Positions 2,190 to 61,069 of a DNA stretch of 64,000 nt are shown one piece after another. A program made the translations under genes and the position numbers. Location: the IMG/VR virus record IMGVR_UViG_3300035210_000151, one strand, 5' to 3'. Within the stretch, counting starts at the first letter, position 1; every line of letters starts with the position of its first letter. The notes beneath the pieces were generated by a model that was not told the DNA's origin, made no database searches, and worked only from the letters and a program-made list of their open reading frames with translations. This DNA comes from a virus (Duplodnaviria > Heunggongvirae > Uroviricota > Caudoviricetes).

Positions 2190-2624
2190 ATGAAAAATAC
2201 ATCAGCAGAATGGGTAAATTTAATTCGTTACAGACTACAATGTGAAAAAGATGGTTATCCAGAGAATTATCTTGCCATTGTTATTAATGCTATGAATGAT
2301 GAATGTATTGATCCTCAGAACCCTCTTATTTTTATGGACAACGTAGGTCATGTGCTTACCATTAAATACCTTAACACATTAACGATTAAAGCGATTAATA
2401 AGTTGTTTACTGATTATGGCTTTGCCGATGACATTAAATACTTTTTAACACTTACTGAGCCTATGGCTTTGCAGTATATAGAGGATTATCGTATTAACTA
2501 TCAGCAATACAGTGTCTTTAAAACGCTGTTGAGTTTTCAGGCAATTGAAAGCATTTCAAATATTGATAAAAAAAGATTTATTTTAACATTAAAAAGAAGC
2601 AAAAACAGTGAAGGTGTGGTATAA
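2190..2624 (+). CDS. hypothetical protein
   Basis: 144 aa ORF with SD GAGGTAG 6 nt upstream. Confidence 0.6.
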   Translation: MKNTSAEWVNLIRYRLQCEKDGYPENYLAIVINAMNDECIDPQNPLIFMDNVGHVLTIKYLNTLTIKAINKLFTDYGFADDIKYFLTLTEPMALQYIEDYRINYQQYSVFKTLLSFQAIESISNIDKKRFILTLKRSKNSEGVV

Positions 2625-2651
2625 TACTCATCTACTTTACGGAGAGTTCTA

Positions 2652-3245
2652 ATGATTTATCTATTTAAGCGAGCCAGCAGTGATTTCAATCGAGTGTTAA
2701 AGACCCTTGGCTACGAGATTGCTCAAGCTAAAAATGAATATGAAATGAAAACTCATATGTTGGAATACTTTTCTGAATCGTGTCTGGGTTTGGATGATAT
2801 TAAACGTGATGAAGAAGTTAGATTTAAACTCAATGAAGTTTTTATGGCTCTTACGGATGGCGAAATTGAACGAGCAAAGTCTCATATTGAGCGTCTTGAA
2901 CCTGTTGTTAAAGCAATGATTCCCCATAGCCTGCTTGAACTAGTTGGCCTTGATTTTGATGGTAAGAAAGTATTTAACCATTCAAACCTTGATTTAAATG
3001 AATACGCTGAATATGCTCGACTAATTTCAGTAATTTCGCATCATTATCGTGAAGATGAGATCGATAAAGCTGAGTATTTTGAGAAGAGATTGTACGAACT
3101 AGTCAGGGTTAGCGAACTTAGTGTGGCAGTTGATGACAAAATGCCTGATGATGAACTTCTTGATATTTGTGCTGAATACCTTAAAAAGTGTAAAGATCCA
3201 GAAGCCAAAATGATCGCTTTTCTTATCAACAAAGCCAAAGCTTAA
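2652..3245 (+). CDS. hypothetical protein
   Basis: 197 aa ORF with SD GGAGAG upstream. Confidence 0.6.
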   Translation: MIYLFKRASSDFNRVLKTLGYEIAQAKNEYEMKTHMLEYFSESCLGLDDIKRDEEVRFKLNEVFMALTDGEIERAKSHIERLEPVVKAMIPHSLLELVGLDFDGKKVFNHSNLDLNEYAEYARLISVISHHYREDEIDKAEYFEKRLYELVRVSELSVAVDDKMPDDELLDICAEYLKKCKDPEAKMIAFLINKAKA

Positions 3246-3260
3246 TTAGAGGATTACTTT

Positions 3261-4532
3261 ATGATGCGAAATATTGATTTGCCTAAATTCGCTGGATCTA
3301 TTTCTGTGGTCTTGCAAGACATGTTTCTTGCAGGTCTTAAAAATGGCGACTTTAAGAAATTATCTGAAATCAAGAACTATAATAATAAAACAGAAACCAC
3401 CTTGATTACATCAAGACCTTATGATTGTTTTCAGTATATTTTTAAACTGGATGAACTTTTCAGTGTGTATCGTATTGCACAAGAAAAAGTTGCTGAACAT
3501 ATGGATTACCAACGAGAACATATCATGACAGCTCTGTTAACCAGTCCAAAAGAATGGGAGCGAATGAAGAAAGATGGTTCATTTAACATGATGGCGTCTT
3601 ATCAATTTCATGTGTCCAGCATTTCATTGTTGAAAAAAATGATGGTTGATCTTGATCTTAATCATTTTGACGATAAATATCATTATTTTGAAGAAGACAT
3701 GGCTCTTTATAATTTTGGTTTCAAAAGTGATATTGATATTATTTTTGAGGCTTCAACTGAGTATGAAAATGAATTTGAAATGGGTAGTGATTGTTTTCAT
3801 AAACATCAAATAGGTTCAAAAGAAGTTGTTTCCTATACCAGTACATCAGCGTGTGTGACTAAATTCATTCTGTATGAACGTGATGTGAATACTGGCACTA
3901 TTCGTGTTTTTGAAGAGCTTGAAGAAAATGTCGATGGTGAACAGTTTCCGCACGACACAATTGTTATTGGTGAATATCCAGAAATTGTAAAACATTACAT
4001 TGATAACGCTGAACCTTGTGTTGTCATTGAAAATGGTGTTTTTATTAAAAATGAAAACCCCTATGTTATTCTTACGTCTTCTTTTATTGGAGAGAGCTTG
4101 GCACAGGAGTTCTCGATTGAGAAAACTAAACCTTATGATGTTACCAGTTTAGCGTCTGTTATGGAATATATGACTTATGACAACATTAACTTGTTGTATA
4201 CTTATGGCATGTGGTCAAGTGATTGCAAATGGAAGAAAAATTCCTCTGGTAAGTATTACATTGCTTTTAATGAAGAGCTACTAAGCACTTATAAACGTGA
4301 AACTGCAATGGTTCATGGTAGTAACGAATATGGATATATCAGTGTGTATAGTTATAAAAGTCCCATGTATAAACTACCAGAAACAGGTGAAATTGAACCT
4401 GAATGGTTAGATTTGGTGGTGAAATCCTATACATTTGTTTCTAAAAACCATAAGAAACTGCCAGTGTGTGAGGCCAAAGAAAAAGACATTCAACAAGTAG
4501 CAGAAAAACTATTGGCAAGAAATTGCATTTAA
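3261..4532 (+). CDS. hypothetical protein
   Basis: 423 aa ORF with SD AGAGGA upstream; followed by a terminator. Confidence 0.65.
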   Translation: MMRNIDLPKFAGSISVVLQDMFLAGLKNGDFKKLSEIKNYNNKTETTLITSRPYDCFQYIFKLDELFSVYRIAQEKVAEHMDYQREHIMTALLTSPKEWERMKKDGSFNMMASYQFHVSSISLLKKMMVDLDLNHFDDKYHYFEEDMALYNFGFKSDIDIIFEASTEYENEFEMGSDCFHKHQIGSKEVVSYTSTSACVTKFILYERDVNTGTIRVFEELEENVDGEQFPHDTIVIGEYPEIVKHYIDNAEPCVVIENGVFIKNENPYVILTSSFIGESLAQEFSIEKTKPYDVTSLASVMEYMTYDNINLLYTYGMWSSDCKWKKNSSGKYYIAFNEELLSTYKRETAMVHGSNEYGYISVYSYKSPMYKLPETGEIEPEWLDLVVKSYTFVSKNHKKLPVCEAKEKDIQQVAEKLLARNCI

Positions 4533-9014: not shown

Positions 9015-9581
9015 ATGACGATTGAAACCTATAAGTTTACTGATGAGACTGTCTTTGAAGCTCTTCAAACTTTTTGTTTGATTAATTCTATTAAAAAGGA
9101 AGAGTTTTGTGCAGCACTTCCAGAGATTATGACTCGTGAAATTATTTTTGATAATCAAACTATTTCGATGGGTCATTGTTTCAAAATCAAATGGAACCAT
9201 CCTTTTTGTGAACCATTGGCTGAATATTTAGACCATCGTTATACGTTTGAGAGCCGTCTTGAAAAAACACTGGGTTTTTATGATGACTTTTTTAATAAGT
9301 ATCCAAGAAAAGACTGTTATTATGTTAATGGTCATTATGCTTTTGATATGGATCAAAGACTGAGAAAAGTTTATTCATTTGACTTTACTGACATTGAGTT
9401 GGGCAATGATTATATGCGGTTTCTTGAATTTGATGACACTAATTTAATCTCATTGGAAACTAGAATTTTCGATTACTATTTTCAGTATTTTGGTAATACC
9501 AATACCCCAGAAGAGTTAAGAAGACCATTAAGTCAATTAACAAAAGAAGAGATATCGTTACTTCAAATGATTCATATCTAA
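9015..9581 (+). CDS. hypothetical protein, family B paralog; tail ...LLQMIHI
   Basis: 188 aa with SD TAGGAG. Similar to 9648..10208 (FESxLxK...DxFFN...DCYY blocks). Confidence 0.65.
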   Translation: MTIETYKFTDETVFEALQTFCLINSIKKEEFCAALPEIMTREIIFDNQTISMGHCFKIKWNHPFCEPLAEYLDHRYTFESRLEKTLGFYDDFFNKYPRKDCYYVNGHYAFDMDQRLRKVYSFDFTDIELGNDYMRFLEFDDTNLISLETRIFDYYFQYFGNTNTPEELRRPLSQLTKEEISLLQMIHI

Positions 9582-9647
9582 ATAGATTGTATAGATTTTT
9601 TGTTGTTATAATGATATAATGTCTTATCTATTTTAAAGGTGATATTG

Positions 9648-10208
9648 ATGATTGAAACCAGAGAGTTTTCCTATGACACAATTTATGAACAGGCCCAAGA
9701 TTTTTTTATTTCGAGAGGAATTACTAAAAAAAGTTTTAGAATGACCCGGCCAAATCTTGTTCATGAACACAATCTAGTTGATCATCTCACACTGGACGAA
9801 GGGCATGCCTTTGGCATTAACTCAAACCATCGCCATTGGTGTGATTTTTTAAATTACCTTGAAGAAAAATATTCATTTGAGTCAAAATTATATAACATCA
9901 TTAAAGACTATGATGAATTTTTCAATCTTGAAAAAAATGATGAGTGTTATAATGAATATGCTTATTATTTTATCAATTCATCTGGGCATATTCAAAAGGT
10001 TCATCTCTTTGAATTTAACGAGCTTGAATATGGTGATTATCACATGTCTCTTTTTGAAGTAAATGATAGCAATATTGAAGAAATGGAAAGGAAAGTGTTA
10101 GATTATTACATTAGTTATTTTGGTAAACCGATTCCAGAAGAATTGATCAAACCCTTAGCAATCATGACACCAGAAGAACGTGAAGTCATTCGCATGATTT
10201 GCATTTAA
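9648..10208 (+). CDS. hypothetical protein, family B paralog; tail ...VIRMICI
   Basis: Track ORF starts at a GTG (9639). ATG at 9648 with SD AAAGGTGA. N-terminus (MIETREF) aligns with its paralog (MTIETYKF). Confidence 0.65.
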   Translation: MIETREFSYDTIYEQAQDFFISRGITKKSFRMTRPNLVHEHNLVDHLTLDEGHAFGINSNHRHWCDFLNYLEEKYSFESKLYNIIKDYDEFFNLEKNDECYNEYAYYFINSSGHIQKVHLFEFNELEYGDYHMSLFEVNDSNIEEMERKVLDYYISYFGKPIPEELIKPLAIMTPEEREVIRMICI

Positions 10209-10972: not shown

Positions 10973-10993
10973 TATCTAATGGAGTAATTTTTG

Positions 10994-11725
10994 ATGAATG
11001 AAATCATTGATGAAGAAAAAAAGAAGAATTGTCCAATTAATGGACTACTTGATTATTTCGTTAGTAATTTTACTGACAAAAATTATGAGTATGGAAGAGA
11101 TCAAATGGGCATCTGTCGGTATCCTTTAAATTCTGAAGGTAAGCGTATTGTGGAGCAACTTGAAGAAGATCGCTTTACTTATGGTTTGGATGGTTGCACA
11201 GCCATTAAGTCTGAATCAATTGTTCCTTTTCGTAAAGGTGATACACCAAGTTCTATTTATTTTAATATTTCGACAAAATATGATGATATTTATTCTGAAC
11301 ATTTTGGTGATTTGTCGTCTCCAATGATAGATTTATTTGTAGAACATACCAATAACCACTTAGATTTAATTAATCAAAAGAAAATTTCAGACGATTATCA
11401 ATTTCTTATATGTAAAGACTTTTCATATGATGCGATATTTAAATATGATCAAATCACCCAAAAAATTACAAGAGTTTTATCTATTGTTTTTAGAAGAAAC
11501 AATACATCATCCGAACAAAATCGTAACGTTCATTGTATTACTGACAACATATTAACCACTCAGGCTACATTAAAACACATGGATAGTGAGTTTTTTAATC
11601 GTTATTACAAAGAAAAAATAAAAGAAGCCTATCCCGATTTGAGTTATGAACAAGTGTATGAGTTATTGGATCTTTCAAAATGGAATGAACATTTAAAATC
11701 TCTTGTAAAAATGACATACTATTGA
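10994..11725 (+). CDS. hypothetical protein, family C (1 of 4 tandem); tail ...LVKMTYY
   Basis: Track start is a TTG. ATG at 10994 with SD TGGAG. Shared block YEYGRDQMGICRYPLNSEGKRI. Confidence 0.65.
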   Translation: MNEIIDEEKKKNCPINGLLDYFVSNFTDKNYEYGRDQMGICRYPLNSEGKRIVEQLEEDRFTYGLDGCTAIKSESIVPFRKGDTPSSIYFNISTKYDDIYSEHFGDLSSPMIDLFVEHTNNHLDLINQKKISDDYQFLICKDFSYDAIFKYDQITQKITRVLSIVFRRNNTSSEQNRNVHCITDNILTTQATLKHMDSEFFNRYYKEKIKEAYPDLSYEQVYELLDLSKWNEHLKSLVKMTYY

Positions 11726-11759
11726 TATAATTAATTAAATAAAAAAAGGCTTATTTCTT

Positions 11760-12452
11760 ATGATAAAAGCAAGCATGTATGGAAATGACAATAAGTTAAA
11801 AGAACTGGGTCACTTATTTTCTAAATTTTCGAATCAAGACTATCAATATGGGCAGGATGGATTGTCTGTTGTCCGTTATCCACTCACCCCTGATGGTAAG
11901 CGAATTCATATGTATGAAGTTAATCGCTGGGATGGGGATATTCGTGGCTATGACAAGTCTTACAACGTTGCAAATATCATTACATCTAACTGGGATTATG
12001 ATTTTGATGTTTCTTTTGTTTTAACATCGGAGCAAAATGATAACGGAAAACCTATTAAGTTTGATTATCTCTACAAATTTCATTCTAATGAGTTTTTCGT
12101 TCGGTTGAAAAAACACTTAAAACTTTTGAATGATTCTCCTGAAATGCATAGAAAACGCGAATTGGTTGAGTTTGAATCTACCCGATTTAAAGTGTCTATA
12201 TTCTATCGTTATGATATTTCTACTAAAATTGTTAGCCGTTGTGCAGAGCTTAAGTTTAAAGCCTTCAATGGAATGCTGGAACATAGGATTACTGTTCTTA
12301 ATGATGATCATAGATTTTTAGCAGCAATGGATGAAATGGAGCAGGAATTTCAAGAGCGTTATTATCGTAATATAATTGAACGTAAAAAAATTGAACGTGG
12401 TTCTTTTTTAAATAAAACCGAACAAAATCTTATTAAAATGGTTTATTACTAA
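11760..12452 (+). CDS. hypothetical protein, family C paralog; tail ...LIKMVYY
   Basis: 230 aa. Block YQYGQDGLSVVRYPLTPDGKRI. Confidence 0.65.
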   Translation: MIKASMYGNDNKLKELGHLFSKFSNQDYQYGQDGLSVVRYPLTPDGKRIHMYEVNRWDGDIRGYDKSYNVANIITSNWDYDFDVSFVLTSEQNDNGKPIKFDYLYKFHSNEFFVRLKKHLKLLNDSPEMHRKRELVEFESTRFKVSIFYRYDISTKIVSRCAELKFKAFNGMLEHRITVLNDDHRFLAAMDEMEQEFQERYYRNIIERKKIERGSFLNKTEQNLIKMVYY

Positions 12453-12456
12453 TATT

Positions 12457-13125
12457 ATGGATATAGGAAAATTTGAATTACCTGATAATATGGCGTCCTT
12501 TAACTACTACTTAAAGCACTCAGCCAGCAATGTGAATTATAGATATCAAATATCTGCGGGGTACACTATTGTTCAGGAAGCTTTAAATACAGATGGCACG
12601 CCAAAAATAAGGGCAGGTTATGATAGGTATCATGCTATTGGTAATCTTACTTATTTTCAACATGACTCTGAGCATGAGTGTTCTTTCGACATAAAACCCA
12701 ATCTATTATCAAAAAAAGAATCGCCTAGAAAAGTCTATTTTGAGAATGTTGATGATTATTATGCCAAACAATTTTTCAAATTGATTACCAATCATCTTCG
12801 TCTTATAAATATGGGAGACGAAATCAATAAAAAGAAAAATCCAGTGTATGCTAACCTTGATCATATCGAAATTTATCCAGTCTATGTTTATCATTCATTA
12901 CATGGAAATATCTATCAAAAAATAATTGTAAAATTTAAAAAGAATAAAGAGTTCCCAGAGCTTTATATTATTGTAAAAAATAATGCCTATAGTTTTGAGA
13001 ATGCAGTTAAAATGATTGACAATGAATTTTTTATTAGATACTATTCACAACTTATTGAGAAAAAGGACACGACAGAGAAGCTTACTAAATCAGAAAAGCA
13101 AATCGTTAAGATGTATTACTATTGA
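12457..13125 (+). CDS. hypothetical protein, family C paralog; tail ...IVKMYYY
   Basis: 222 aa. Same architecture as its paralogs; closely coupled to the upstream gene. Confidence 0.6.
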   Translation: MDIGKFELPDNMASFNYYLKHSASNVNYRYQISAGYTIVQEALNTDGTPKIRAGYDRYHAIGNLTYFQHDSEHECSFDIKPNLLSKKESPRKVYFENVDDYYAKQFFKLITNHLRLINMGDEINKKKNPVYANLDHIEIYPVYVYHSLHGNIYQKIIVKFKKNKEFPELYIIVKNNAYSFENAVKMIDNEFFIRYYSQLIEKKDTTEKLTKSEKQIVKMYYY

Positions 13126-13134
13126 GGGCTTTTT

Positions 13135-13755
13135 ATGATTAAGGATTTTAACCGTTTTTTAAGAGATAAATTAGACAACCAGAAACACACTTACACACAT
13201 TGTGAAGGTGAAATATATCGTCATTCTAATCAAATAACATTTGATAAAGCCATGAGTGAAAATAACTTTATTATTGTGGGTGAAGCTTTTTTCCATCTTG
13301 ATAAAGAGACGGTAGACCAATATGACATGTTTTTCATGAATACTGTAAAATTTAATTCAAAAGCGATGGCTGAGCATAATTTAATCATGGACTACTCTGA
13401 ACACATTCAGACTCGAAAACTATTTTTAGCTTTCTTGGAAAATGTTCGTCTCATTGAAAAACATAAAAGACATCCAGATAAGTATACATTAGAGACAAAA
13501 AGTTTTTATTATAGTAATGTATTTTATTTTAGATCTGACAACAGTAAGCCGCTCGCATTACCTTACTTAACGATGCAAACGCCAACAGGATACATTCAAC
13601 TTGAATTCAATCACAATCAACTTCAAAATGTCAATGAACAAATAAGGGTTATCAATGAAACCTTCCGAGAGTATTATTTTAAACACGTTCTTGATAAGAC
13701 GGTTACTGAGATGTCTGACGATGAAAAGAAAGCTGTGATTATGTTTTATCAATAG
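13135..13755 (+). CDS. hypothetical protein, family C paralog; tail ...AVIMFYQ
   Basis: 206 aa with SD GAGGG. Confidence 0.6.
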   Translation: MIKDFNRFLRDKLDNQKHTYTHCEGEIYRHSNQITFDKAMSENNFIIVGEAFFHLDKETVDQYDMFFMNTVKFNSKAMAEHNLIMDYSEHIQTRKLFLAFLENVRLIEKHKRHPDKYTLETKSFYYSNVFYFRSDNSKPLALPYLTMQTPTGYIQLEFNHNQLQNVNEQIRVINETFREYYFKHVLDKTVTEMSDDEKKAVIMFYQ

Positions 13756-13756
13756 A

Positions 13757-13781
13757 AAAAGAGGCCGAAGCCTCTTTAATT
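13757..13781. terminator. bidirectional terminator between convergent genes
   Basis: aaagaggccgaagcctcttt hairpin flanked by A/T tracts. Confidence 0.65.
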
Positions 13782-13798: not shown

Positions 13799-14977
13799 TT
13801 ATGGTTTAATTTCTCTAACTTCTTTGACAGAACCACGATTGACGACAAAACTAATCACACCTTCACTGTCATATTTACTTTGTTCAGCTTCACCGACTAC
13901 AATAATCTCAGGAACACCGCGTTCTTTCCAGTATCGGATCTTCTTCCCTAATGAATCAGCACTTTGATCCAGCTTAGATGATTTCTTATCCAGATGAGAA
14001 AATACGACCTTTGCATACTCCATAGATTTTTCGGATACTGGAATAACCACTGATTTCATAGGGTGTAAGAAGTCAGGTATGTCTTTACCAAAGGACTCCA
14101 ACAAGATCCCTATCATGCGTTCAAGTGAACCTAATACGGCATGGTGGAGAATAATAGGACGCTTAGGTTTGTTATCGGCATCAATGTATTCAAGTCCAAA
14201 CCGTTCTGGAAGAACATAATCGAGCTGTATCACACCTAATTGCCATGATCTACCGAGTTTGTCTTCGACTTGGAGTTCAAGTTTCGGGCCATAGAAAGCC
14301 CCGTCATTTTCGTTCTCTACGAAATCAAGGTTATTCATTCTGCAGGCTTCTCGTAAGGCTTCTTCTGCTTTATCCCATAAGCTGTCATCACCAAATCTTT
14401 TCTCTGGACGTAAAGCAATGGCGTATTTAATCTTTTTGAATCCGAGTTCTTCATATGCTTTCTGGCTCATCTGTATGTATTGATTGACCGAACTGATTAG
14501 ATTTTCTTCGTTCACAAACACATGACTATCATCCTGACAAAATTGTCTTTGTCTGAATAATACTTGTAAAGCACCAGACGCTTCATTACGAAACACTTCA
14601 CCAAATTCAAATATTGGTAATGGGAGTTCACGGTAGCTTCTTTTTTCTGATTGGTATATTAGGATATGGTTGGGACAGCTCATAGGACGGAGAGCGTAGT
14701 TACTGGCTTCTGATGAATTGAGAAAGAACATGTTGTCTTTGTATTTATCCATATGACCAGATTGTTCAAATAAGCTAGGTACCACAATAGATGGACTCTT
14801 AACTTCAAGATAACCGGCGTCTTCATGGTGTTTACGGATAAAAGATTTTAAATTCTCATACAATTTAAGACCTTCTGGTTTCCAGTAAACAACACCTGCA
14901 CTTTCAGCCAACATGAATAAGTTCATTTCTTTGGCAACTTGCATGTATCTCTTTTCTTCGTTTAATTTGTCGTTCAT
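13799..14977 (-). CDS. thrS: threonyl-tRNA synthetase-like, catalytic plus anticodon-binding domains only
   Basis: 392 aa. Class II motif 2/3 blocks are homologous to the ThrRS core (SCPNH, FRNEASGALQVLFRQRQFCQDDSHVF, ILHHAVLGSLER). The three ThrRS zinc ligands (Cys, His, His) are retained. Lacks the roughly 240 aa N-terminal TGS/editing region. SD AGGGGAAA. Confidence 0.85.
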   Translation of the reverse strand: MNDKLNEEKRYMQVAKEMNLFMLAESAGVVYWKPEGLKLYENLKSFIRKHHEDAGYLEVKSPSIVVPSLFEQSGHMDKYKDNMFFLNSSEASNYALRPMSCPNHILIYQSEKRSYRELPLPIFEFGEVFRNEASGALQVLFRQRQFCQDDSHVFVNEENLISSVNQYIQMSQKAYEELGFKKIKYAIALRPEKRFGDDSLWDKAEEALREACRMNNLDFVENENDGAFYGPKLELQVEDKLGRSWQLGVIQLDYVLPERFGLEYIDADNKPKRPIILHHAVLGSLERMIGILLESFGKDIPDFLHPMKSVVIPVSEKSMEYAKVVFSHLDKKSSKLDQSADSLGKKIRYWKERGVPEIIVVGEAEQSKYDSEGVISFVVNRGSVKEVREIKP

Positions 14978-15026
14978 TTTATTTCCCCTTGATGGTTTAG
15001 TTTGTGTTAATCATTTATTTTTGACA

Positions 15027-15054
15027 TAAAAAAACCCAGCCGTTTAGCTGGGTT
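15027..15054 (-). terminator. rho-independent terminator for the gene at 15213..15512
   Basis: cccagctaaacggctggg hairpin followed by a T-run on the minus strand. Confidence 0.6.
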
Positions 15055-15212
15055 TGTGTGGTTCCGATTATTTTAAGACAGCAACAATCGACCAGCCCAG
15101 CTATTGAACTGAGTTGTTGTAGTCGTTGTGTTTGCTGCAAATAATTTCATCTGAATTTTCTCCAATTACTTATATTGTGATCTTTATTTTCAAAAATGTC
15201 AACTATTATTTT

Positions 15213-15512
15213 TTAATCTATTGGTTTATTGGTTTCGTATTTTTTTATTTCTTTTCCATAAAAATAACTTATTATAAAAAATATTGTTGGAATAATTACA
15301 CCAATAACCCATCCTGCAACCAAACTCCAAAAAAGCCATGTTTCGTGCTTGTTAAACAAAGGATAGTCGATTAACTGATAATAATAATAAGTGAGAAAAG
15401 ACATAACAACAAATCCAACAATTGCGTCAATAGATGTAGTCATTTTAAAATCTTCAGCCTCAGTTTTTTCCTTAGTTAAATCTTCTTCTGTTATTTTTTC
15501 TAGTTTATTCAT
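15213..15512 (-). CDS. small membrane protein (2 TM)
   Basis: Track start is a TTG. ATG at 15512 (MNKLEK) with SD TGGAG. Two hydrophobic helices. Confidence 0.5.
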   Translation of the reverse strand: MNKLEKITEEDLTKEKTEAEDFKMTTSIDAIVGFVVMSFLTYYYYQLIDYPLFNKHETWLFWSLVAGWVIGVIIPTIFFIISYFYGKEIKKYETNKPID

Positions 15513-15739
15513 TTTATACTCCAATATCGTTGTTTTAGCTTAGCTTATTTTAATTATTAAACAAGTAATTTTAAACAAAAAAGAATATAATTAACTATAA
15601 AATCATCTATTGTCAACTTTGACGTTACAATAAGCTGTTTATCTTTTTTCATTGTCTTGCGTTGTTAACTTTGTTGAAGACTTGTTGTTAAAACTTAATT
15701 TTTATGTTATTATAGTGTTCTTATTAGGAGAATATAATC

Positions 15740-16131: not shown

Positions 16132-16842
16132 TTAAATATAAACCATATCTTTAACTTTAAAGTAATCCAATAATTCTTCATTTTTATTATTGATAATGTT
16201 GTTTATGTAGTATTCAATATTATCAATATCTTCATCATTTGCACTGTAATATAAGAGTGTAATCAAATAATCTAGTTGTGTATGGTTAAAACTAATAAAG
16301 CCAGTCGTTGTATTATCATCTCCATCGTTTTGGATCTCAGTAGATAGAATTTCATTTTCTTTATTGATATTAAGCATAATTCTCATCTTCTTATTTTGAT
16401 TCTTGCCACCATAACGAATTGTTAAAAAATCTTGATTATTGAATGAAATTTGCATAATTACTACCTTAGATTTATACACTATAACAATAGTACTGTTTAC
16501 ATCATTAAACAAATGAATCTCGGCTTTCTTAAATTGTTCTGGTAGATTGTTTTCGTATTGTAATCCTAGGCGTTTATGAGCCTGTTCAAACATACCTTGA
16601 ACAAATTTATTATATATTTTTGAATTTTTGTTTTGTTCATCCGAATGTGTGGTATGATCTTTTCCATTAACAAGTGGTATTGTTAATGGTGTTGATTTAT
16701 CATTTGCTATGAGCATTTGATTCATGACTTTATGATAAGTATTGAAAAATACGTCAAAATAGTGTTGCATATTTGTAATATGATTTTCTAATAATATTTC
16801 AAATGCTGGTGGTGTGGCTATATCTATGGTGACATATTTCAT
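16132..16842 (-). CDS. hypothetical protein, family D (1 of 3 tandem); tail ...KVKDMVYI
   Basis: 236 aa. Shared block HTQLDYLITLLYY...EEIDNIExYIxxIxxxxxEELxDYFKVKxMxYI. Confidence 0.65.
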   Translation of the reverse strand: MKYVTIDIATPPAFEILLENHITNMQHYFDVFFNTYHKVMNQMLIANDKSTPLTIPLVNGKDHTTHSDEQNKNSKIYNKFVQGMFEQAHKRLGLQYENNLPEQFKKAEIHLFNDVNSTIVIVYKSKVVIMQISFNNQDFLTIRYGGKNQNKKMRIMLNINKENEILSTEIQNDGDDNTTTGFISFNHTQLDYLITLLYYSANDEDIDNIEYYINNIINNKNEELLDYFKVKDMVYI

Positions 16843-16857
16843 TTGAATAAACCTCTA

Positions 16858-17652
16858 TTAAATATAAATCATCTCTTTAAGTTTTATATAATTTATAAAA
16901 TCTTCATAGTTTTCTGCGAGAATATCATCGACGTATTTTTCTGTAATAAAATCAATTTCCTCACCATCAGCGTAGTGGCTGAGCACAATAAGATAATCTA
17001 ATTGTTGATGGTTTAAAGTAATCATATCTGTTTCATCTGATCGTGCATTATTAAAATTAAAGTAAACTTCTGTTGAGATAATTTCAGTGTTGTGATTAAT
17101 AGTAATGTCCAACATCATTTTATTGCTGTCACAACTATTTAGCATATAGACAATATTCAATCCATTTTTATCAAAATTTATACACATCATGATAGGTTTT
17201 GTAAAATAGGTGACACTTATCTTAGCATTGTCAAAAAAGTGAGAAAAAATAACGTCAGCTTTTTTATGATTGTCTTTAATATATTCCACAAATGTTAAAT
17301 TACTTCTAGCATGTGCCTTTTTAACAAGGTTCTCAATAAAATCCATGTAGACAGTAGAGTTCTGATTTTTTACATCTGTATATTCCGTGCAATCATCTTT
17401 ATCAGGAGCGTGATAAATTCGAACGTCAGCGAATTTTTTATTCGTTTCTTTTAGATATTGAGTAACTTTATCTTTAACATTTAAGCACGCTGAAAAATAA
17501 TATCTGATATTTGGGGTAATAATATCCAATAAATTTTTAAAATCTTCATTTTCTGTTTTTACAGTTAAATATTTGTTCTCAACACCCTTACTAGATGTCT
17601 CATCAAAGATATGTTTTGGACTGAGTTTTTTTATAATATATTGATTTGTCAT
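16858..17652 (-). CDS. hypothetical protein, family D paralog; tail ...KLKEMIYI
   Basis: 264 aa. Confidence 0.65.
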   Translation of the reverse strand: MTNQYIIKKLSPKHIFDETSSKGVENKYLTVKTENEDFKNLLDIITPNIRYYFSACLNVKDKVTQYLKETNKKFADVRIYHAPDKDDCTEYTDVKNQNSTVYMDFIENLVKKAHARSNLTFVEYIKDNHKKADVIFSHFFDNAKISVTYFTKPIMMCINFDKNGLNIVYMLNSCDSNKMMLDITINHNTEIISTEVYFNFNNARSDETDMITLNHQQLDYLIVLSHYADGEEIDFITEKYVDDILAENYEDFINYIKLKEMIYI

Positions 17653-18377
17653 ATGTAAGTCATCTCTTTTACTTTAAAATAATCAATTACATCTTTATAG
17701 TTTTCGGCTAACACCTTATCAATATATGGTTCTACATTAAAATCGTTCTCTTCGACCATGCCATAATGACATAAAGCAATAAGATAATCTAGCTGTTTAT
17801 GACTTAATTTTATCTTTTCTGGCTCTTTATAAATTTTACCATTAAAGTGAACAATTGTTGATAATATTTCATTATTTTCATTTATTTTTATTTCTATCAT
17901 CATTTTATTACTGTCATTATTGTTAATTTTGTAGACAATAACCAAACCAGTTTCAGTAAATGTAAAAAGAGTGCTAATTGTTTGAGTGTGATAATTTATT
18001 TCTATTTTTGGGCGATTGAATAGATAGCAAATATCCATATAACCTTTTCGAGCATTTGATGGTAAATGTTCATAATAATTGAGGTCATTTCTAGCATGAG
18101 ATTGTTTTAATAATTGACTAATGAAATTATAATATATTCTATCATCACGATTCTCGACATCACAATATTCACGGTGACTTCCTTTTTCTGGATTTGCATA
18201 CATATTAATCATATCAATGTGTATACCTGCCAGAATAAGTTTTTTAACAACTTCTTTAATTTTAGTTTCATTGTTAAACCAATTTGAAAAATAATAACTC
18301 ATATTAATTTGACTGACATCGAACAATTCATCAAATTCTAAAAGATCATTCTGGACTATTGTGTATTTTTCATTCAT
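17649..18377 (-). CDS. hypothetical protein, family D paralog; tail ...KVKEMTYI
   Basis: 242 aa; overlaps the downstream gene by 4 nt. Confidence 0.65.
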   Translation of the reverse strand: MNEKYTIVQNDLLEFDELFDVSQINMSYYFSNWFNNETKIKEVVKKLILAGIHIDMINMYANPEKGSHREYCDVENRDDRIYYNFISQLLKQSHARNDLNYYEHLPSNARKGYMDICYLFNRPKIEINYHTQTISTLFTFTETGLVIVYKINNNDSNKMMIEIKINENNEILSTIVHFNGKIYKEPEKIKLSHKQLDYLIALCHYGMVEENDFNVEPYIDKVLAENYKDVIDYFKVKEMTYI

Positions 18378-18434: not shown

Positions 18435-19529
18435 TCAAGCTTCTTTCATTTTTACAAGCATTTCCATTGCAATGTCTTTATAAGTTACTACAAATTCTTC
18501 AATGTCTGGAACACTTTTTTCAAGTGCTTTCAAATAATCACTGATTTCTTTGTTTTTCAACTCTGGCTTAAATTTCAAAAGACGCCCACCATTGAAATAT
18601 TCTTTGAAAACCTTACGGCGTTCAAGCATAGCCCAAGTATCCACCTCAGTTTGAGCAAATGTTGGGAAGAATGCGTAGACACGATCTTTCCATTTATCAC
18701 TGTCCATCGGTGTCTTGTCCTTGAAGTAACCCAGAGCATCTTGTTCCTCAATCCAATTCAAGAAACCATTATATGTTGGACGTTTACGGTCACGGGTACG
18801 TTGGGTATGGTTACGGTTCTCAAATGCATACAGGCTTGGGCTGAAATATCGGCTAGACGCTGCATATTCATAAATCTCCAAGAGGTTATCAAAACCAGCA
18901 TAATAACGCTCTTGTGAGTAACCAAAGAACTCCAAAGCTTCATCCCAATCATTCGTCAACACAACGCTTTCAAAGAGGTTATCACCATCCCTGAACAAAT
19001 AACGAAGACCATCATGACCATATTTCAAGAAACCATTAGAGCTGGCAACAACACCTACCAAGTTACCCAAATCGTTCCAGTTCAAATAAGAAGAATGAAA
19101 CTTATAATAAGCCCGCTCAGAAGCAATCAAATCAAGCTGGAAATAAACCGCTTCTTCATCCGAAGGCAGACCGATACTCATCACCATATCTTTTTTGTCT
19201 TTTGGTTTGTAAGGCAATGGGCCAGTGTGATTGAATTCCACACGAAGCATTTCCATCACTTCTTCATAAGGAACGAAGCTAAACAATTCACCATCTACCA
19301 GCAAATCGAGATCACCAAAAGTTTCTTTTTGACGATACGCTTTGACTTCATGGGGAGCATCAACAATGTGAGCACCCATAGAGTTTGCTTTTTCGATGGC
19401 AGCATTCAACACCTTGACAACTTTCGCCGTCAAGCTATCAAAATCTTTTTTATGGAGACGTTTCGATTGAACGCCAACTGGCTCAGGGTTGCCGTTTACT
19501 ACGGCAAGAGCTAATGCATTACCACCCAT
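18435..19529 (-). CDS. candidate Pol-beta-superfamily nucleotidyltransferase
   Basis: 364 aa. ...ETFGDLDLLVDGE resembles the Pol beta / MNT G-D-h-D-h-h-h metal-binding strand. No other diagnostic motif seen. Confidence 0.4.
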   Translation of the reverse strand: MGGNALALAVVNGNPEPVGVQSKRLHKKDFDSLTAKVVKVLNAAIEKANSMGAHIVDAPHEVKAYRQKETFGDLDLLVDGELFSFVPYEEVMEMLRVEFNHTGPLPYKPKDKKDMVMSIGLPSDEEAVYFQLDLIASERAYYKFHSSYLNWNDLGNLVGVVASSNGFLKYGHDGLRYLFRDGDNLFESVVLTNDWDEALEFFGYSQERYYAGFDNLLEIYEYAASSRYFSPSLYAFENRNHTQRTRDRKRPTYNGFLNWIEEQDALGYFKDKTPMDSDKWKDRVYAFFPTFAQTEVDTWAMLERRKVFKEYFNGGRLLKFKPELKNKEISDYLKALEKSVPDIEEFVVTYKDIAMEMLVKMKEA

Positions 19530-24768: not shown

Positions 24769-24845
24769 CGGAGTGTAGGTCAGCCCGGTAGACCGCTTGC
24801 TTTGGGAGCAAGATGCCGCAGGTTCAAATCCTGCCACTCCGACCA
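24769..24845 (+). tRNA. tRNA-Pro (anticodon UGG), CCA encoded
   Basis: Canonical cloverleaf folded by hand. Acceptor CGGAGTG/CACTCCG. D-arm GGTC...GACC. Anticodon stem CTTGC/GCAAG with loop TTTGGGA. T-arm GCAGG-TTCAAAT-CCTGC. Ends ACCA. Confidence 0.85.
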
Positions 24846-24894: not shown

Positions 24895-24969
24895 TGAAGG
24901 GTAGCTCAGTGGGTAGAGCAGCCTGCATTTTGGGCGGGTATGTCGGAGGTTCAAATCCTTCCTCTTCAA
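24895..24969 (+). tRNA. tRNA with atypical anticodon arm (best guess anticodon UUU, Lys); no encoded CCA
   Basis: Acceptor TGAAGGG/CTCTTCA (U1-A72). D-arm TAGCTCAGTGGGTAGAGCA. T-arm GGAGG-TTCAAAT-CCTTC. Two extra nucleotides between the D-stem and T-stem: either a 6 bp anticodon stem with 7 nt loop ATTTTGG, or an expanded 9 nt loop. Confidence 0.6.
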
Positions 24970-25024
24970 CATTATTACATAAATCTTATACTTCTATAAG
25001 GTTTATTTTTTTTGAGGTCTTGTT

Positions 25025-26742: not shown

Positions 26743-26779
26743 AAAAAAAAGCACCTATTCCTAAGTGCTTTTGATTTTT
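26743..26779 (-). terminator. rho-independent terminator (copy 1 of a duplicated terminator)
   Basis: aaaaaaaagcacctattcctaagtgctttt; near-identical to the copy at 27643. Confidence 0.6.
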
Positions 26780-27521
26780 AAAGTTCCATTTTCTTAACAC
26801 GACATATTTCTGAATATCCAAAATTAGGATTAGGCCCAGATATTCTTTCATCATCTTCTCTAAAATTATCAAAATAAATATACGATGAAGTTGTTACAGG
26901 TGAAGACTCTGGATCATAGTCCGCAGGAACATAATACCAAGTAGTAGGTTTAAAATGGTTTAAGCCAAAAGTGGTTGAATGAAATTCACGAGTGCCATCT
27001 ATTGTATTCCTAGCTGCATAGTCTGTGCTTGTATTCAAAATACATTCTGGCGTCCAATCTGGTCCTGTATGATCATCTATCGGTGGTCTATCATCTTCAT
27101 CTACATCTCCCATTATTGGATATATTGATAAATCATTAGCACAGATTTCAAATACTGATCCTTGTGGATAGCTTTGCATTTGTTTTCCTTTACTTAAACC
27201 CGGTTTTATAAATTTGTTATTAGATGGGCTGTAATAACTAACAACACTTTCACCAGCAATAAATATCATATCACCTATTTGATATGGCCCATCCGCCACA
27301 CCATATAGCACAACATAGTTTTGATTATCATAAATACAATTAGTGCTTGGTGCTTCACCTTCATTTTCAGTGTTATCACCTTTACCAAAACTTACACTAC
27401 CATTAGGTAATCCACCACCAGCATCCATTTCTAATGGTACTGCAACTTGATAGGCTGCAAATGTTAATTGTGAAAAAGAAGTTATCATCAGCATTGTTGT
27501 TATTTTTAATAGCTTTGACAT
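26778..27521 (-). CDS. secreted protein, paralog of 27676..28437
   Basis: Start at MSKLLKITTMLMITSFSQLTFA|AYQVAVPLE (signal peptide). C-terminal ...GPNPNFGYSEICRVKKMEL shared with the paralog. Confidence 0.65.
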   Translation of the reverse strand: MSKLLKITTMLMITSFSQLTFAAYQVAVPLEMDAGGGLPNGSVSFGKGDNTENEGEAPSTNCIYDNQNYVVLYGVADGPYQIGDMIFIAGESVVSYYSPSNNKFIKPGLSKGKQMQSYPQGSVFEICANDLSIYPIMGDVDEDDRPPIDDHTGPDWTPECILNTSTDYAARNTIDGTREFHSTTFGLNHFKPTTWYYVPADYDPESSPVTTSSYIYFDNFREDDERISGPNPNFGYSEICRVKKMEL

Positions 27522-27642
27522 CTTGTCAACCTTTAAATTATTTATGTATTTATATATATTAACTTGGTTGTGATTAAAGTCAAATTTATGACTTGTTTCT
27601 AAGTTTATGATTTTAATTAATAATATGTCATTATTTTGGCTA

Positions 27643-27677
27643 AAAAAAAGCACCTATTTCTAAGTGCTTTATTTTTT
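27643..27677 (-). terminator. rho-independent terminator (copy 2)
   Basis: aaaaaaaagcacctatttctaagtgcttt; duplicated together with the gene. Confidence 0.6.
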
Positions 27678-28437
27678 ATAGATCTCTTTTTCTAACTCGA
27701 CATATTTCAGAATAGCTGAAATTAGGATTAGGTCCAGAAACTCGTGGGTCGCCTGATTGTTCTGATTTATCAAAAAATATATATGATGATGGGTTATTTG
27801 GATCATAATCAGCAGGAACATAATTCCAGTTTGGGACTGCAACATGATTTAATCCAAACGTTGTTGAATGAAATTCACGAGAATTGTTGAGCGTGTTTAG
27901 TGCTGCATAATCAGTCGTTGTATTTAATATACATTCAGGTGTCCAATCCGGTCCTGAGCGATCATCTACTGGTGGATCTATTGGTTCCGGTCCCGGCCCA
28001 CTGAGTGGTGGTAATGATGGATAGCTTGAAAAGTTATCACTACATATTTCATACATCATCGCATCAGGATTACTACCATCATCTTTTCGAGCACCTTTAC
28101 TTAGACCACTCGGCACTGTAAAACCTCTTGATGGAATATTAAATCCAATAATTGTTTGGTTGTATCCATACAATTCATCACCCACCTTGTATACACTGTT
28201 CTCTTTATTAAAAACAACAACAAGGTTGTCATCATTGTAGATGCAATTAGTGCTGGCTGGTGGTGGCGTTCCATTGTCAGGATTGGTTACATTGCCTATT
28301 ACAATGCTTCCAGTTGGAAGAGCACCACCTTGTGTTGTTTCTAATGGAATTGCGATTCTGTAAGCAGCAAAAGTTGGCAGTATTCCCACCATAGCTATTA
28401 GCAGTGTTGTTAATTTTAATGTCTTAGTCACGATCAT
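27676..28437 (-). CDS. secreted protein, paralog of 26778..27521
   Basis: MIVTKTLKLTTLLIAMVGILPTFA|AYRIAIPLE signal. Conserved Cys pairs (ECILNT...EICRV). Confidence 0.65.
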   Translation of the reverse strand: MIVTKTLKLTTLLIAMVGILPTFAAYRIAIPLETTQGGALPTGSIVIGNVTNPDNGTPPPASTNCIYNDDNLVVVFNKENSVYKVGDELYGYNQTIIGFNIPSRGFTVPSGLSKGARKDDGSNPDAMMYEICSDNFSSYPSLPPLSGPGPEPIDPPVDDRSGPDWTPECILNTTTDYAALNTLNNSREFHSTTFGLNHVAVPNWNYVPADYDPNNPSSYIFFDKSEQSGDPRVSGPNPNFSYSEICRVRKRDL

Positions 28438-35671: not shown

Positions 35672-35699
35672 TTAAAAAAGGCACTTAGGTGCCTTTTTC
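35672..35699. terminator. bidirectional terminator
   Basis: aaggcacttaggtgcctt hairpin; the minus-gene stop lies in the loop. Confidence 0.65.
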
Positions 35700-36143
35700 A
35701 TTAATTAAATTGTAAATGTTATTTGAAGCCTTTATTGCTTGGTTTAAATAATAAACCCATGATGTAATGATACATATAACCATCAAGGGCATTGTTATTA
35801 GAATCATAATTTGGTCTACTATTACAAAAAAGAAAAACATTATTTCTGGTAATGGTATTTTTAATGTCAATGTTATGAATGTGGATGTAATCATGGGTAT
35901 TAGTGATATAAACAAAATTATCATGGCAATTAGATATTTTTTCAAAATATTTCTAACGTGTATCTGTAATAATCTCTCTTCATTTTTTTTGTAGTATTTA
36001 ATATAGATATATATATTTGGGATAAGTATATACAGCAATACAAATACTCCATAAAATAAAACAGTTATTGGAATGGAAGCTATTAATATTATTAGTATCA
36101 AATATATTTTCTTTAATTGCTTGTAGTTATTTAATTCATTCAT
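35685..36143 (-). CDS. small multi-TM protein, family G (4th of 4 tandem paralogs)
   Basis: N-terminus MNELNNYKQLKKIY..., then TM helices. Conserved ...IYIY.KYYK... and W.YYL...IKAS blocks. Confidence 0.6.
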   Translation of the reverse strand: MNELNNYKQLKKIYLILIILIASIPITVLFYGVFVLLYILIPNIYIYIKYYKKNEERLLQIHVRNILKKYLIAMIILFISLIPMITSTFITLTLKIPLPEIMFFFFVIVDQIMILITMPLMVICIITSWVYYLNQAIKASNNIYNLINEKGT

Positions 36144-36161
36144 GATTTTATCTTTTTTATT

Positions 36162-36590
36162 TTAAATTGCATTATTAAATAGGCGACTATCTACGTTGCC
36201 AGAAGCTTTAATTAAACTGTACAAGTAATATATCCACCCACCTAAAAAACCTATAAAAATTGAAGTCATTGAAAATATTAACACTAAATAGCCTGTTCCA
36301 TTTTCTATTTTTGCATAGTTTATGAATAACATTGATAGCAGAGGTAAAAATGAAATAATAACGATTGTCATCGAAATTACACATTTTTTCAACATCTCAC
36401 TGATATGTAATTCAAACGTGCTTTCACCATCTCGTTTATAATATTTACTGTAAATGTAAAGATTAGGTATCAATATATACAGCAATAAAAATGGTCCAAA
36501 AAATAGTATGGCTATTGGTGAGATAGCTGTGAGCATTATCATTCTTGAATATATATTCTTTAAACACTCATATTCGTTTAAATTATTCAA
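36162..36590 (-). CDS. small multi-TM protein, family G paralog
   Basis: MNNLNEYECLKNIY...; same architecture. Confidence 0.6.
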   Translation of the reverse strand: MNNLNEYECLKNIYSRMIMLTAISPIAILFFGPFLLLYILIPNLYIYSKYYKRDGESTFELHISEMLKKCVISMTIVIISFLPLLSMLFINYAKIENGTGYLVLIFSMTSIFIGFLGGWIYYLYSLIKASGNVDSRLFNNAI

Positions 36591-37033
36591 ACTTCACCTC
36601 TTATTTGTTTATTGAGTAAACTGTGATTTTTAATTAATTTGTATCCATAATACGACCAAGAAAACGCTGGGCCTATGAAACATCCAATAGCCGCCAAGAA
36701 CATCATTAGATATTCACCACCAGTGGGTTGACCACCATCTGCTCCAACAAAAACTAACATCGGCAACAAAGAAACTACAAGTATTCCACCGGATATCCAA
36801 AAAGCCATCAATATTTTTTTAATATGAGATTGAAAAGCGTCATGATCAGTAAGCTTATAATATTTTGTCCAGATTAAGGCATGAGGAACAATAATTAATA
36901 AAAGGAGCAAAAGAATGGCAAGTATATAAGATTGAAACGCAATGTAAAAACAAAGTGTAGGCACTGCAAACGTCATAAAAATTAAAACTTTGTAAATATT
37001 ATCCAATGTTGAATATCGGTTGTTGTCATCCAT
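36587..37033 (-). CDS. small multi-TM protein, family G paralog
   Basis: Start moved to MDDNNRYSTLDNIY... by paralog alignment. The track start is a GTG inside a terminator hairpin. Coordinate of the start is +/-1. Confidence 0.55.
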   Translation of the reverse strand: MDDNNRYSTLDNIYKVLIFMTFAVPTLCFYIAFQSYILAILLLLLLIIVPHALIWTKYYKLTDHDAFQSHIKKILMAFWISGGILVVSLLPMLVFVGADGGQPTGGEYLMMFLAAIGCFIGPAFSWSYYGYKLIKNHSLLNKQIRGEV

Positions 37034-37144
37034 GAGGACACATCTTTGATTGTTGTTTATATTATTATAATATGTAGTTGTTCTTTTACAATCAAATAAA
37101 CTAAAAAAAGACACATAAGTGCCTTTTAAATATTATTGTTGTTT

Positions 37145-37585
37145 TCAAGCTATAAATATATTATTTTTTTTCTTTTTCATTTTTTCAAATTGATGATATT
37201 CCTTTATCAAAACGACTAAATAATAGCCCCATGCACCGATAGAACCTATAAATTTTATGACCACAGCAATCATATCCATCGTCGCAGTCATGTCATTGAC
37301 AACCGTATATGAAGTTATTAAAGCAGGTATAGAGGTTAGGAACAAAATAGTAATGGATGTGCTAAAGAAATGCAGTAATTTTCTAATCTCTCTATCAAAA
37401 GATGAGCGAACCAATTCGTTGTAATATTTCATAGACATGATTAAGTTGGCTATTAGAGCGATTGTTAACACCACTGGTAGTCCAAAGGGCAATGAAATGA
37501 ATAATGCCATGATTGGCCCACAGATTGTGAGTGCTATAAAAATTCTATAAATTGTAGTTAATATTGATTGATCCTGAGTGTTCAT
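37145..37585 (-). CDS. small multi-TM protein, family G paralog
   Basis: MNTQDQSILTTIY...; first gene after the large ORF on the minus strand. Confidence 0.6.
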   Translation of the reverse strand: MNTQDQSILTTIYRIFIALTICGPIMALFISLPFGLPVVLTIALIANLIMSMKYYNELVRSSFDREIRKLLHFFSTSITILFLTSIPALITSYTVVNDMTATMDMIAVVIKFIGSIGAWGYYLVVLIKEYHQFEKMKKKKNNIFIA

Positions 37586-45583: not shown

Positions 45584-45601
45584 TGATAGGAAACATAAAA
45601 A

Positions 45602-56592: not shown

Positions 56593-56655
56593 TTTAATAA
56601 CTTATTAATTTTTTTCTTATTGTATGTTATAATGATAAAAAACCACGATTTATTT

Positions 56656-60841: not shown

Positions 60842-61069
60842 GCAAGATTTTCTTGCTTTCTTTTTGTTTTTTTGATAGAATAGCCATATTAAACGAAACG
60901 CAATCAAAGGAACTACATCATGAACGCTTCAAACACATTTCACTTTCAAAAGTCTTTCACTGTTCGATATTGAACTTCTCCGCTCTATGCTTCTGTTAGA
61001 GGCATTATCTATTTAACTAAAAAATCAGCTACACACAAACACAATTAAATTTTCGTGGAGAAAAATATT

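Follow-up and report, generated by a model that had tools for sequence, protein, structure and literature searches.

The 64,000-nucleotide stretch of DNA from the IMG/VR virus record IMGVR_UViG_3300035210_000151 that was analyzed here in its entirety (hereafter, the window) encodes, on the minus strand, a complete 392-residue threonyl-tRNA synthetase (ThrRS) which consists of the class II catalytic core and a shortened anticodon-binding domain, and lacks the N-terminal TGS (N1) and tRNA_SAD editing (N2) domains. The proofreading by which ThrRS clears Ser-tRNA-Thr is usually taken to be near-universal in bacteria. The gene and the signals around it are laid out as follows.

13799-14977, minus strand: complete open reading frame (ORF) of the 392-residue short ThrRS, with a TAA stop codon at 13799-13801; identified by Pfam, NCBIfam and alignment to PDB sequences
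14078-14977, minus strand: class II catalytic core, residues 1-300; delineated by the PF00587 match at residues 88-295, residue mapping and the fold match to 1evk
13802-14077, minus strand: shortened anticodon-binding domain, residues 301-392; delineated by the PF03129 match, the secondary structure of the model and class-wise conservation
14985-14990, minus strand: Shine-Dalgarno (SD)-like motif AAGGGG, with a 7-nt spacer to the ThrRS ATG
15032-15055, minus strand: intrinsic-terminator hairpin with a T-run, ending the upstream transcription unit
13758-13777, minus strand: intrinsic-terminator hairpin, 21 nt past the ThrRS stop, between the convergent gene at 13135-13755 (plus strand) and the ThrRS gene (minus strand)

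Given that terminators bracket the ThrRS gene on both sides, it looks monocistronic. The upstream terminator lies in the 235-nt spacer on the 5' side of the gene and is separated from the start codon by a leader of ~54 nt that is devoid of structure; neither a T-box nor an E. coli-type thrS operator-like RNA was found in the leader. Autoregulation of the E. coli thrS also requires the N-terminal region (PMC7373986). Because the frame of the ThrRS gene is closed by a TGA at 15011-15013, 12 codons upstream of the ATG, and contains no start codons in between, an N-terminal extension of the ORF is impossible. The next ORF upstream (15213-15524) encodes a protein of 103 residues that, by eye, looks membrane-spanning and has no Pfam match.

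Domain composition, conservation and fold of the short ThrRS

The Pfam search yielded two relevant matches for the 392-residue protein, namely, tRNA-synt_2b (residues 88-295, E 2.9e-43) and HGTP_anticodon (residues 309-367, E 2.6e-11), and none other. The score against the NCBIfam equivalog model for thrS, TIGR00418, is 394.2 bits, slightly above the cut-off (383.65), with an alignment limited to profile positions 173-535 of 565 and hence no match to the N-terminal third of the model; against the archaeal-type model NF003068, the protein reaches 169.5 bits for a cut-off of 484 and thus is not assigned to the archaeal type. Alignments with the sequences of solved structures lead to the same domain boundaries: the query aligns with residues 250-610 of the Stenotrophomonas ThrRS, a full-length enzyme, and query residues 11-366 align with chain positions 3-360 of 1evk, the truncated E. 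coli enzyme of 401 residues. The catalytic core begins at the equivalent of residue ~234-243 of the E. coli ThrRS.

The ORF contains the motifs MSCPNH, FRNEASGALQVLFRQRQFCQDDSHVF and ILHHAVLGSLER. Residue equivalences were established via alignment and are given in the E. coli/Salmonella numbering, with the positions in the window ThrRS following. The three zinc ligands are conserved, C334 as C101 (codon 14675-14677), H385 as H152 (14522-14524) and H511 as H278 (14144-14146, all on the minus strand), and so are R363 (R130, motif 2), D383 (D150), Y462 (Y229), K465 (K232), Q484 (Q251), R520 (R287, motif 3) and, likewise, E365 of the E. coli enzyme. Class-wise conservation was assessed, in the E. 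coli numbering, for 93 full-length ThrRS, 45 other short ThrRS and 69 members of the family to which the window ThrRS belongs. In the 69 family members, C101, H152, H278, R130 and R287 are invariant. Several near-universal positions of the core are nevertheless altered in the family: DHR243-245 is replaced with RYM, R512 with H, and G372 of the motif 2 loop, a glycine in 93/93 full-length ThrRS, with V or L; in addition, T482 is replaced with V in half of the family.

No domain that could perform editing was detected in the vicinity of the gene. Searches with Pfam models for the TGS, tRNA_SAD, tRNA-Thr_ED (ThrRS-ed), YbaK and DTD families produced no matches among the 76 other ORFs of the window, and tblastn searches in which the N-terminal parts of 86 diverse ThrRS, all full length, served as queries produced none, in any frame, in the window and in 19 related loci (~300 kb in total), whereas the same 86 queries matched the positive control loci with E values down to 1e-165. 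The absence of the N1 and N2 domains from the ThrRS itself is supported by Pfam, by the upstream frame and by tblastn alike, and no freestanding editing protein of the type found in the split ThrRS-cat/ThrRS-ed systems was detected in the 64-kb window or the 19 related loci. An upstream extension, a frameshift and an adjacent editing ORF are ruled out by the in-frame stop, the terminator in the spacer and the negative tblastn results. The seryl-tRNA synthetase (SerRS) and tyrosyl-tRNA synthetase (TyrRS) encoded in the same window are full length and, therefore, the trimming is specific to ThrRS.

The short form is widespread and well conserved. A search of 5.8 billion proteins identified more than 120 protein clusters that are 57-99% identical to the window ThrRS, all of them 376-415 residues in length, with the same two domains, the same start position and an SD motif. 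The alignment of 69 family members includes about 90 invariant columns, every catalytic residue among them. Comparison with the copy that lies on a contig of 1.85 Mb and shows 98% identity gives 0.006 non-synonymous substitutions per site (dN), 0.194 synonymous substitutions per site (dS) and a ratio of the two (omega) of 0.033, with purifying selection acting along the entire length of the gene. The AlphaFold2 model of the protein has a mean predicted local distance difference test score (pLDDT) of 94 and a predicted template modeling score (pTM) of 0.91; in Foldseek searches, it superimposes on the truncated E. coli and Salmonella ThrRS structures with a template modeling score (TM) of ~0.90 and a root-mean-square deviation of 1.6-2.0 Å (TM 0.90 and 1.6 Å for 1evk), and matches the yeast mitochondrial MST1 with a TM of 0.89-0.90. 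At the sequence level, the core is at most 42.5% identical to the proteobacterial orthologs. In reference phages and plasmids, megablast detected no match, and the protein matches are at most 43% identical. Separately, 566 Klebsiella plasmid records contain partial tblastn matches to the ThrRS, with less than 80% coverage.

Thus, the short ThrRS is a natural, conserved minimal form, a member of a large family and not a broken gene. The original prediction, which was made from the sequence of the window alone, had described a designed short enzyme with class II motifs and three zinc ligands, preceded by a strong SD, starting directly at the catalytic domain, and lacking the N-terminal TGS and editing region; it did not give the strand of the ORF, but in all these respects, it has held up.

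Remodeling of the anticodon-binding domain

The original prediction missed the remodeling of the anticodon-binding domain. This domain is present and is folded with confidence in the model, but the PF03129 match at the C-terminus of the ThrRS covers only profile positions 2-65 of 94. Three of the positions in question, R583, E600 and R609, correspond to residues that bind an anticodon-like loop (PMC6430810). The class-wise comparison can be summarized as follows.

E600: E in 93/93 full-length ThrRS; kept in 69/69 family members (E365 in the numbering of the window ThrRS)
R609: R in 84/93 full-length ThrRS; M, V or I in the family, with R in 0/69 (V378 in the window ThrRS)
K/R589: K or R in 77/93 full-length ThrRS; G in 69/69 family members (G354 in the window ThrRS)
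R583: R or K in 86/93 full-length ThrRS; variable in the family
Tail past the equivalent of E600: median of 39 residues in full-length ThrRS; 15-32 residues, with a median of 25, in the family

Judging from the secondary structure of the predicted model, the domain has no C-terminal helix. Both R609 and this terminal helix are mostly retained in the 45 other short ThrRS. The lack of the helix and the replacement of the anticodon contacts R609 and K/R589 are new with this family. Taken together, the changes at R609, K/R589, R583 and the terminal helix suggest that the family might read the anticodon differently or less strictly.

How does this enzyme compare with the ThrRS that are already known to function without editing? 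Among the closest counterparts is the engineered E. coli deltaN-ThrRS (residues 242-642; PDB 1EVK, 1EVL, 1FYF and 1KOG), which has the same boundaries of the core and the anticodon-binding domain, with all zinc-binding and catalytic residues identical to those of the window ThrRS. The window enzyme, however, is natural, only ~38-40% identical to the E. coli construct, lacks the last helix, and has both R609 and K/R589 replaced. In work of Dock-Bregeon and colleagues from 2000, the truncated E. coli ThrRS reportedly aminoacylates tRNA but also makes Ser-tRNA-Thr. That the tRNA's 3' end moves into the editing site is a point on which the review PMC7373986 cites this work; the review locates editing in N2.

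Among the natural enzymes, the yeast mitochondrial MST1 (PDB 3UGQ, 3UH0 and 4YYE) similarly consists of the core and the anticodon-binding domain, without an editing domain, although it is an organellar eukaryotic enzyme with 31% identity to the window ThrRS; the tRNA-Thr1 that MST1 recognizes is unusual, and its editing is of the pre-transfer kind. The split crenarchaeal system, represented by Aeropyrum pernix ThrRS-1 (PDB 3A31), includes a separate DTD-like ThrRS-ed, whereas none was found in the window or the ~300 kb of related loci; moreover, unlike the crenarchaeal ThrRS, the window enzyme is of the bacterial type, and 3A31 is its weakest ThrRS fold match (TM 0.83). The ThrRS of Mycoplasma, in which the editing domain is degenerate, and the Anabaena ThrRS T2, with impaired editing, are bacterial enzymes that naturally lack editing activity. 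The former occurs in reduced genomes (PMC7373986), and the latter is a duplicated ThrRS for which T1 subunits correct the errors in trans (PMC4787780). Both, however, keep a degenerate N-terminal domain, whereas in the window ThrRS, TGS and N2 are gone altogether. Finally, the ThrRS of huge phages (e.g. the 386-residue protein of LR756504) share with the window enzyme the short architecture as well as the genomic setting, that is, an ORFan-rich genome, use of SD motifs, and tRNA and aminoacyl-tRNA synthetase (aaRS) genes, but belong to a separate lineage in which R609 and the C-terminal helix are kept. Thus, editing-less ThrRS are already known from mitochondria, crenarchaea, functionally Mycoplasma, and the engineered E. 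coli construct; what is new in the window family is a bacterial-type enzyme with an apparently remodeled anticodon-binding domain that is representative of a large and widespread group not described in the searchable literature.

The replicon that carries the short ThrRS

So what kind of genome encodes this enzyme? Apart from the ThrRS gene, the following features of the window were identified.

46414-47685, plus strand: full-length SerRS, N-terminal coiled coil and core, ~50% identical to bacterial SerRS
61055-62329, plus strand: TyrRS of full length, including an S4-like C-terminal domain; scores 422 bits against bacterial TyrRS
24769-24845 and 24895-24970, plus strand: tRNA-Pro(TGG) and tRNA-Lys(TTT) pair, kept in the relatives L002 and L005
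5551-7425, plus strand: NAD-dependent DNA ligase, 170 bits to E. coli LigA, best match from residue 221 on
18435-19529, minus strand: 364-residue ORF with a match to the PHROG category 'DNA polymerase'
54943-55827, plus strand: S49/NfeD-type peptidase that also matches the PHROG 'head maturation protease'
10991-13125, 16132-18377, 35685-37585, 44072-46366, 44-1568, 9015-10208 and 26778-28437: arrays of paralogs
37735-39873 with 56620-58566: pair of paralogs of 712 and 648 residues

The coding density of the window is 91%, with a mean ORF length of 240 residues. Much of the window is filled with tandem arrays of paralogous ORFans, with 2-4 copies per array, mostly of 140-265 residues, among which the ThrRS, SerRS and ligase genes sit singly; a Band_7/SPFH protein is encoded as well. 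SD-like motifs precede 42/81 ORFs (52%), compared to 7.7% at random positions. A eukaryotic giant virus, akin to Mimiviridae or Klosneuvirus, was considered on account of the aaRS genes, the ankyrin and DUF4116 neighbors and the megabase contigs, and is ruled out by the presence of SD motifs in 52% of the ORFs along with canonical intrinsic terminators. The flanking ORFs of the ThrRS gene are shared with a single related locus, L007, where the ORF 18435-19529 (69% identity) adjoins the ThrRS gene too; the synteny with L099 is not borne out by the sequence. The NAD-ligase gene is syntenic with that of ThrRS in the relatives. The relative L016 encodes tRNA-Ser(TGA) in addition to the tRNA-Pro/tRNA-Lys pair. 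The search for a co-located cognate tRNA was negative: there is no tRNA-Thr in the window, where tRNA-Pro(TGG) and tRNA-Lys(TTT) are the only tRNA genes, or in any locus of the family.

On balance, we lean towards the view that the window encodes a working, stand-alone minimal ThrRS, most likely an ordinary one, and probably the only ThrRS of an uncultured, AT-rich replicon of ~1.85 Mb in which proteobacteria-like core genes coexist with an extreme abundance of ORFan paralog arrays. The window shares 90% nucleotide identity, across 20.8 kb, with a contig of 1,851,360 bp, Ga0308423_1259934 of JGI 3300028584, and other members of the ThrRS family are found on contigs of 1.0-1.54 Mb, the one of 1.54 Mb being Ga0247725_1000001 of JGI 3300024308. 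Among the related contigs, L100 encodes a 557-residue primary-type sigma70, RecX, RNase HII, a CtpB-like protease, DsbA, PilB, PilD, HU and ParC; the 1.69 Mb scaffold L101 encodes DnaE, ThyA, DHFR, ParC/ParE, RuvB and a Dam-family methyltransferase (PF02086); and the 1.84 Mb contig L104, k141_522346 of ENA ERZ27281805, with a matching GC content, encodes TopA, an SNF2 helicase, a CheW-response-regulator protein, RuvB, ParE/ParC and PilD. The sigma factor is 42-45% identical to the gamma-proteobacterial RpoD, and ParE is 51-53% identical to the beta-proteobacterial ParE, with no gap to the members of the clade itself; the divergence from the proteobacterial orthologs is of a similar order for the sigma factor, ParE, SerRS, TyrRS and the ThrRS core. 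Given the near-identical DNA on the 1.85 Mb contig and the cell-type genes on the related megabase contigs, the short enzyme is more likely to be the genome's own working ThrRS, and the original notion of an accessory, second ThrRS is probably wrong. In our estimate, a cellular, host-dependent lineage related to proteobacteria is the somewhat better supported identity of the replicon and is more likely than a giant phage-like element.

Several observations, however, weigh against this interpretation. The window looks virus-like, with Pfam matches in only 10/81 ORFs (~88% without) and short ORFs on average (240 residues), and three aaRS genes within 64 kb amount to a higher density than would be expected of a 1.85 Mb bacterium. 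The homologs of the ORF 18435-19529 detected with tblastn come mainly from large, jumbo and huge phages, including Pseudomonas phage pPa_SNUABM_DT01 (34%), Acinetobacter phage ME3, in which the homolog is annotated as a DNA polymerase beta family protein, and phages of 484-735 kb from the work of Al-Shayeb et al. An 85%-identical ThrRS is encoded on a 437 kb contig that is listed as viral by IMG/VR. With regard to the enzyme itself, G372 (V/L), R512 (H), R609 (M/V/I) and K/R589 (G) are replaced at positions with little or no variation among the 93 full-length ThrRS, so that tRNA handling may differ from that of the textbook enzyme.

These observations feed the principal alternative, a possible although less probable one, which retains the same biochemistry but takes the replicon for a giant phage or an element resembling one. 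The ThrRS gene would then be an auxiliary translation gene that, beside the window's genes for SerRS, TyrRS and tRNAs, maintains the charging of tRNA-Thr in the course of infection, and any proofreading would fall, in trans, to the full-length ThrRS of the host. The ORFan-rich composition of the window, with its tandem paralog arrays and short genes, the jumbo- and huge-phage homologs, and the viral assignment of the 437 kb relative are all in line with this scenario. So is the divergence of the NAD-ligase, which is at most 29% identical to its matches in phage databases and far more divergent than the aaRS genes. Furthermore, short ThrRS turned out to be dominant in huge viral contigs. In a survey of the top 80 ThrRS loci in IMG/VR, short forms were found in 14/15 loci on contigs of at least 200 kb, 4/5 on contigs of 90-200 kb, and 4/60 on contigs below 90 kb, the latter being mostly prophages that end in the host full-length thrS; the short ThrRS of the huge viral contigs are 386-435 residues in length. 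Among the 150 best cluster representatives at 50% identity, 33 are complete short forms. In LR756504.1, a curated 636 kb huge phage (L097, 4911-6330), the gene for the 386-residue ThrRS starts one base past tRNA-Thr(GGT) and is followed by tRNA-Asn and then tRNA-Thr(TGT); a tRNA-Thr gene is located near that of ThrRS in several other huge contigs as well. The cultured jumbo phage Phosso encodes a full-length ThrRS. The presence of tRNA synthetases in huge phages has been reported, with the threonyl enzyme absent from the main text (Al-Shayeb et al. 2020, PMC7162821), and our literature search found no paper that would join jumbo or huge phages with the loss of ThrRS domains, nor any in which the accessions of the sample or the assembly appear.

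The difficulty with this scenario is that the huge-phage enzymes represent another lineage, with 54-58% identity to cellular full-length ThrRS and only 38-45% identity to the window family. Moreover, the related contigs reach 1.0-1.85 Mb, over twice the size of any phage genome on record, the maximum being 841 kb (bioRxiv 10.1101/2025.01.14.633092), and carry genes for a primary-type sigma factor, DnaE, TopA, ParC/ParE, RuvB, RecX, PilB/PilD and a CheW-type protein. Capsid, terminase and tail genes were not identified in the window, where the single match to a PHROG 'portal' (E 2.8e-9) has not been linked to a particular ORF. On balance, the replicon is less likely to be a giant phage-like element.

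A single origin of all short ThrRS is not supported, as judged from the identities and from a crude neighbor-joining tree. Because the huge-phage forms are closer to cellular ThrRS than to the window family, and because the tree scatters the short forms, the N-terminal region was likely lost more than once, although the tree is too weak for counting independent losses.

A more distant relative is also on record. The locus L098 (positions 2253-3470 of GCA_900154565.1 FTKD01001503.1, GC 59%) encodes a ThrRS of the short family that is 58% identical to the window enzyme, with SprT-like and AcrVA2-like genes and a gene for a PAS-GGDEF-EAL protein as neighbors. The AcrVA2-like and SprT-like neighbors fit the phage scenario, and the GC-rich composition of this contig implies that the family extends beyond the megabase replicons of AT-rich composition; mobile elements may carry it from one genome to another.

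Function of the short ThrRS and its significance

A drift to a non-canonical or specialized role, be it that of a ThrRS with altered or less stringent recognition of tRNA, of a regulator or decoy that binds RNA, or of a spare enzyme resistant to inhibitors, appears improbable. Such a drift could explain why R609 is retained in 0/69 family members, K/R589 is G in all 69, R583 is variable, the terminal helix of the anticodon-binding domain is missing, and G372 and DHR243-245 have given way to V/L and RYM, respectively. Yet, all residues involved in threonine activation and zinc binding are kept and invariant in the family, the score against the thrS equivalog model exceeds the cut-off, purifying selection acts over the whole length, and no operator-like RNA is found nearby. 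As for the inhibitor-insensitive spare, which was among the possibilities raised originally, the titles of PDB entries for E. coli ThrS mutant structures with obafluorin involve G463 and L489. These two we take to be inhibitor-resistance positions of the borrelidin/obafluorin type, and both are unchanged in the window ThrRS (G230 and L256, respectively); with substitutions at the candidate resistance positions absent, this idea is unsupported. Induced mistranslation and other non-canonical roles are speculation. The view that the gene is a pseudogene or a shortened relic of full-length thrS, or else a gene-calling artifact, which would account for the absence of the N-terminal ~240 residues present in almost all bacterial ThrRS, is effectively refuted by the same SD-preceded start across more than 120 clusters, the omega of 0.033, the in-frame stop 12 codons upstream, the lack of any N-terminal remnant in any frame in the tblastn searches, and the complete, confident fold model.

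Returning to the favored reading of a working minimal ThrRS, the boundaries and fold that match those of the truncated E. coli enzyme, together with the retention of the catalytic residues, lead us to infer that the protein charges tRNA-Thr but cannot edit Ser-tRNA-Thr in cis. The catalytic core would take threonine via the active-site zinc, which excludes valine, form Thr-AMP and pass the threonine to a tRNA-Thr held by the shortened anticodon-binding domain. In the known enzymes, serine is activated despite the exclusion of valine by the zinc, and must be cleared by the N2 domain (PMC7373986). With the TGS and N2 module missing, post-transfer hydrolysis of Ser-tRNA-Thr in cis would not occur, and the serine errors would be either tolerated or removed in trans by some factor encoded outside the examined loci. 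Should this be the sole ThrRS of the genome, an elevated rate of threonine-to-serine errors would have to be tolerated, as in Mycoplasma and mitochondria; should the replicon be a phage, proofreading in trans could come from a host enzyme, in the way that the Anabaena T1 serves T2.

A bolder hypothesis, which we put forward only tentatively, is that the family represents the sole, proofreading-free ThrRS of a new kind of replicon of 1-1.9 Mb, either the largest phage-like genome or a bacterial lineage that consists mostly of ORFan arrays, with the remodeling of the anticodon-binding domain reflecting co-evolution with a lineage-specific tRNA-Thr or relaxed reading of the anticodon. If this is the case, then, together with the short ThrRS of the separate huge-phage lineage, the dropping of ThrRS editing would be a recurrent adaptation of host-dependent genomes.

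Either nature of the replicon would be unusual, and the replicon may turn out to be a greater surprise than the ThrRS itself. It combines cell-type core genes with a virus-like density of ORFans and would be either an ORFan-laden bacterial lineage that so far has not been described or a phage-like element of double the record size known so far. For the enzyme, the altered anticodon contacts on a compact natural scaffold could be of use in studies of tRNA identity and in engineering. A large conserved family that dispenses with the whole of the TGS and editing region is a natural test of the extent to which translation needs proofreading, and if the short enzyme is indeed the only ThrRS of a cellular lineage, the loss of editing would parallel that in Mycoplasma and mitochondria.

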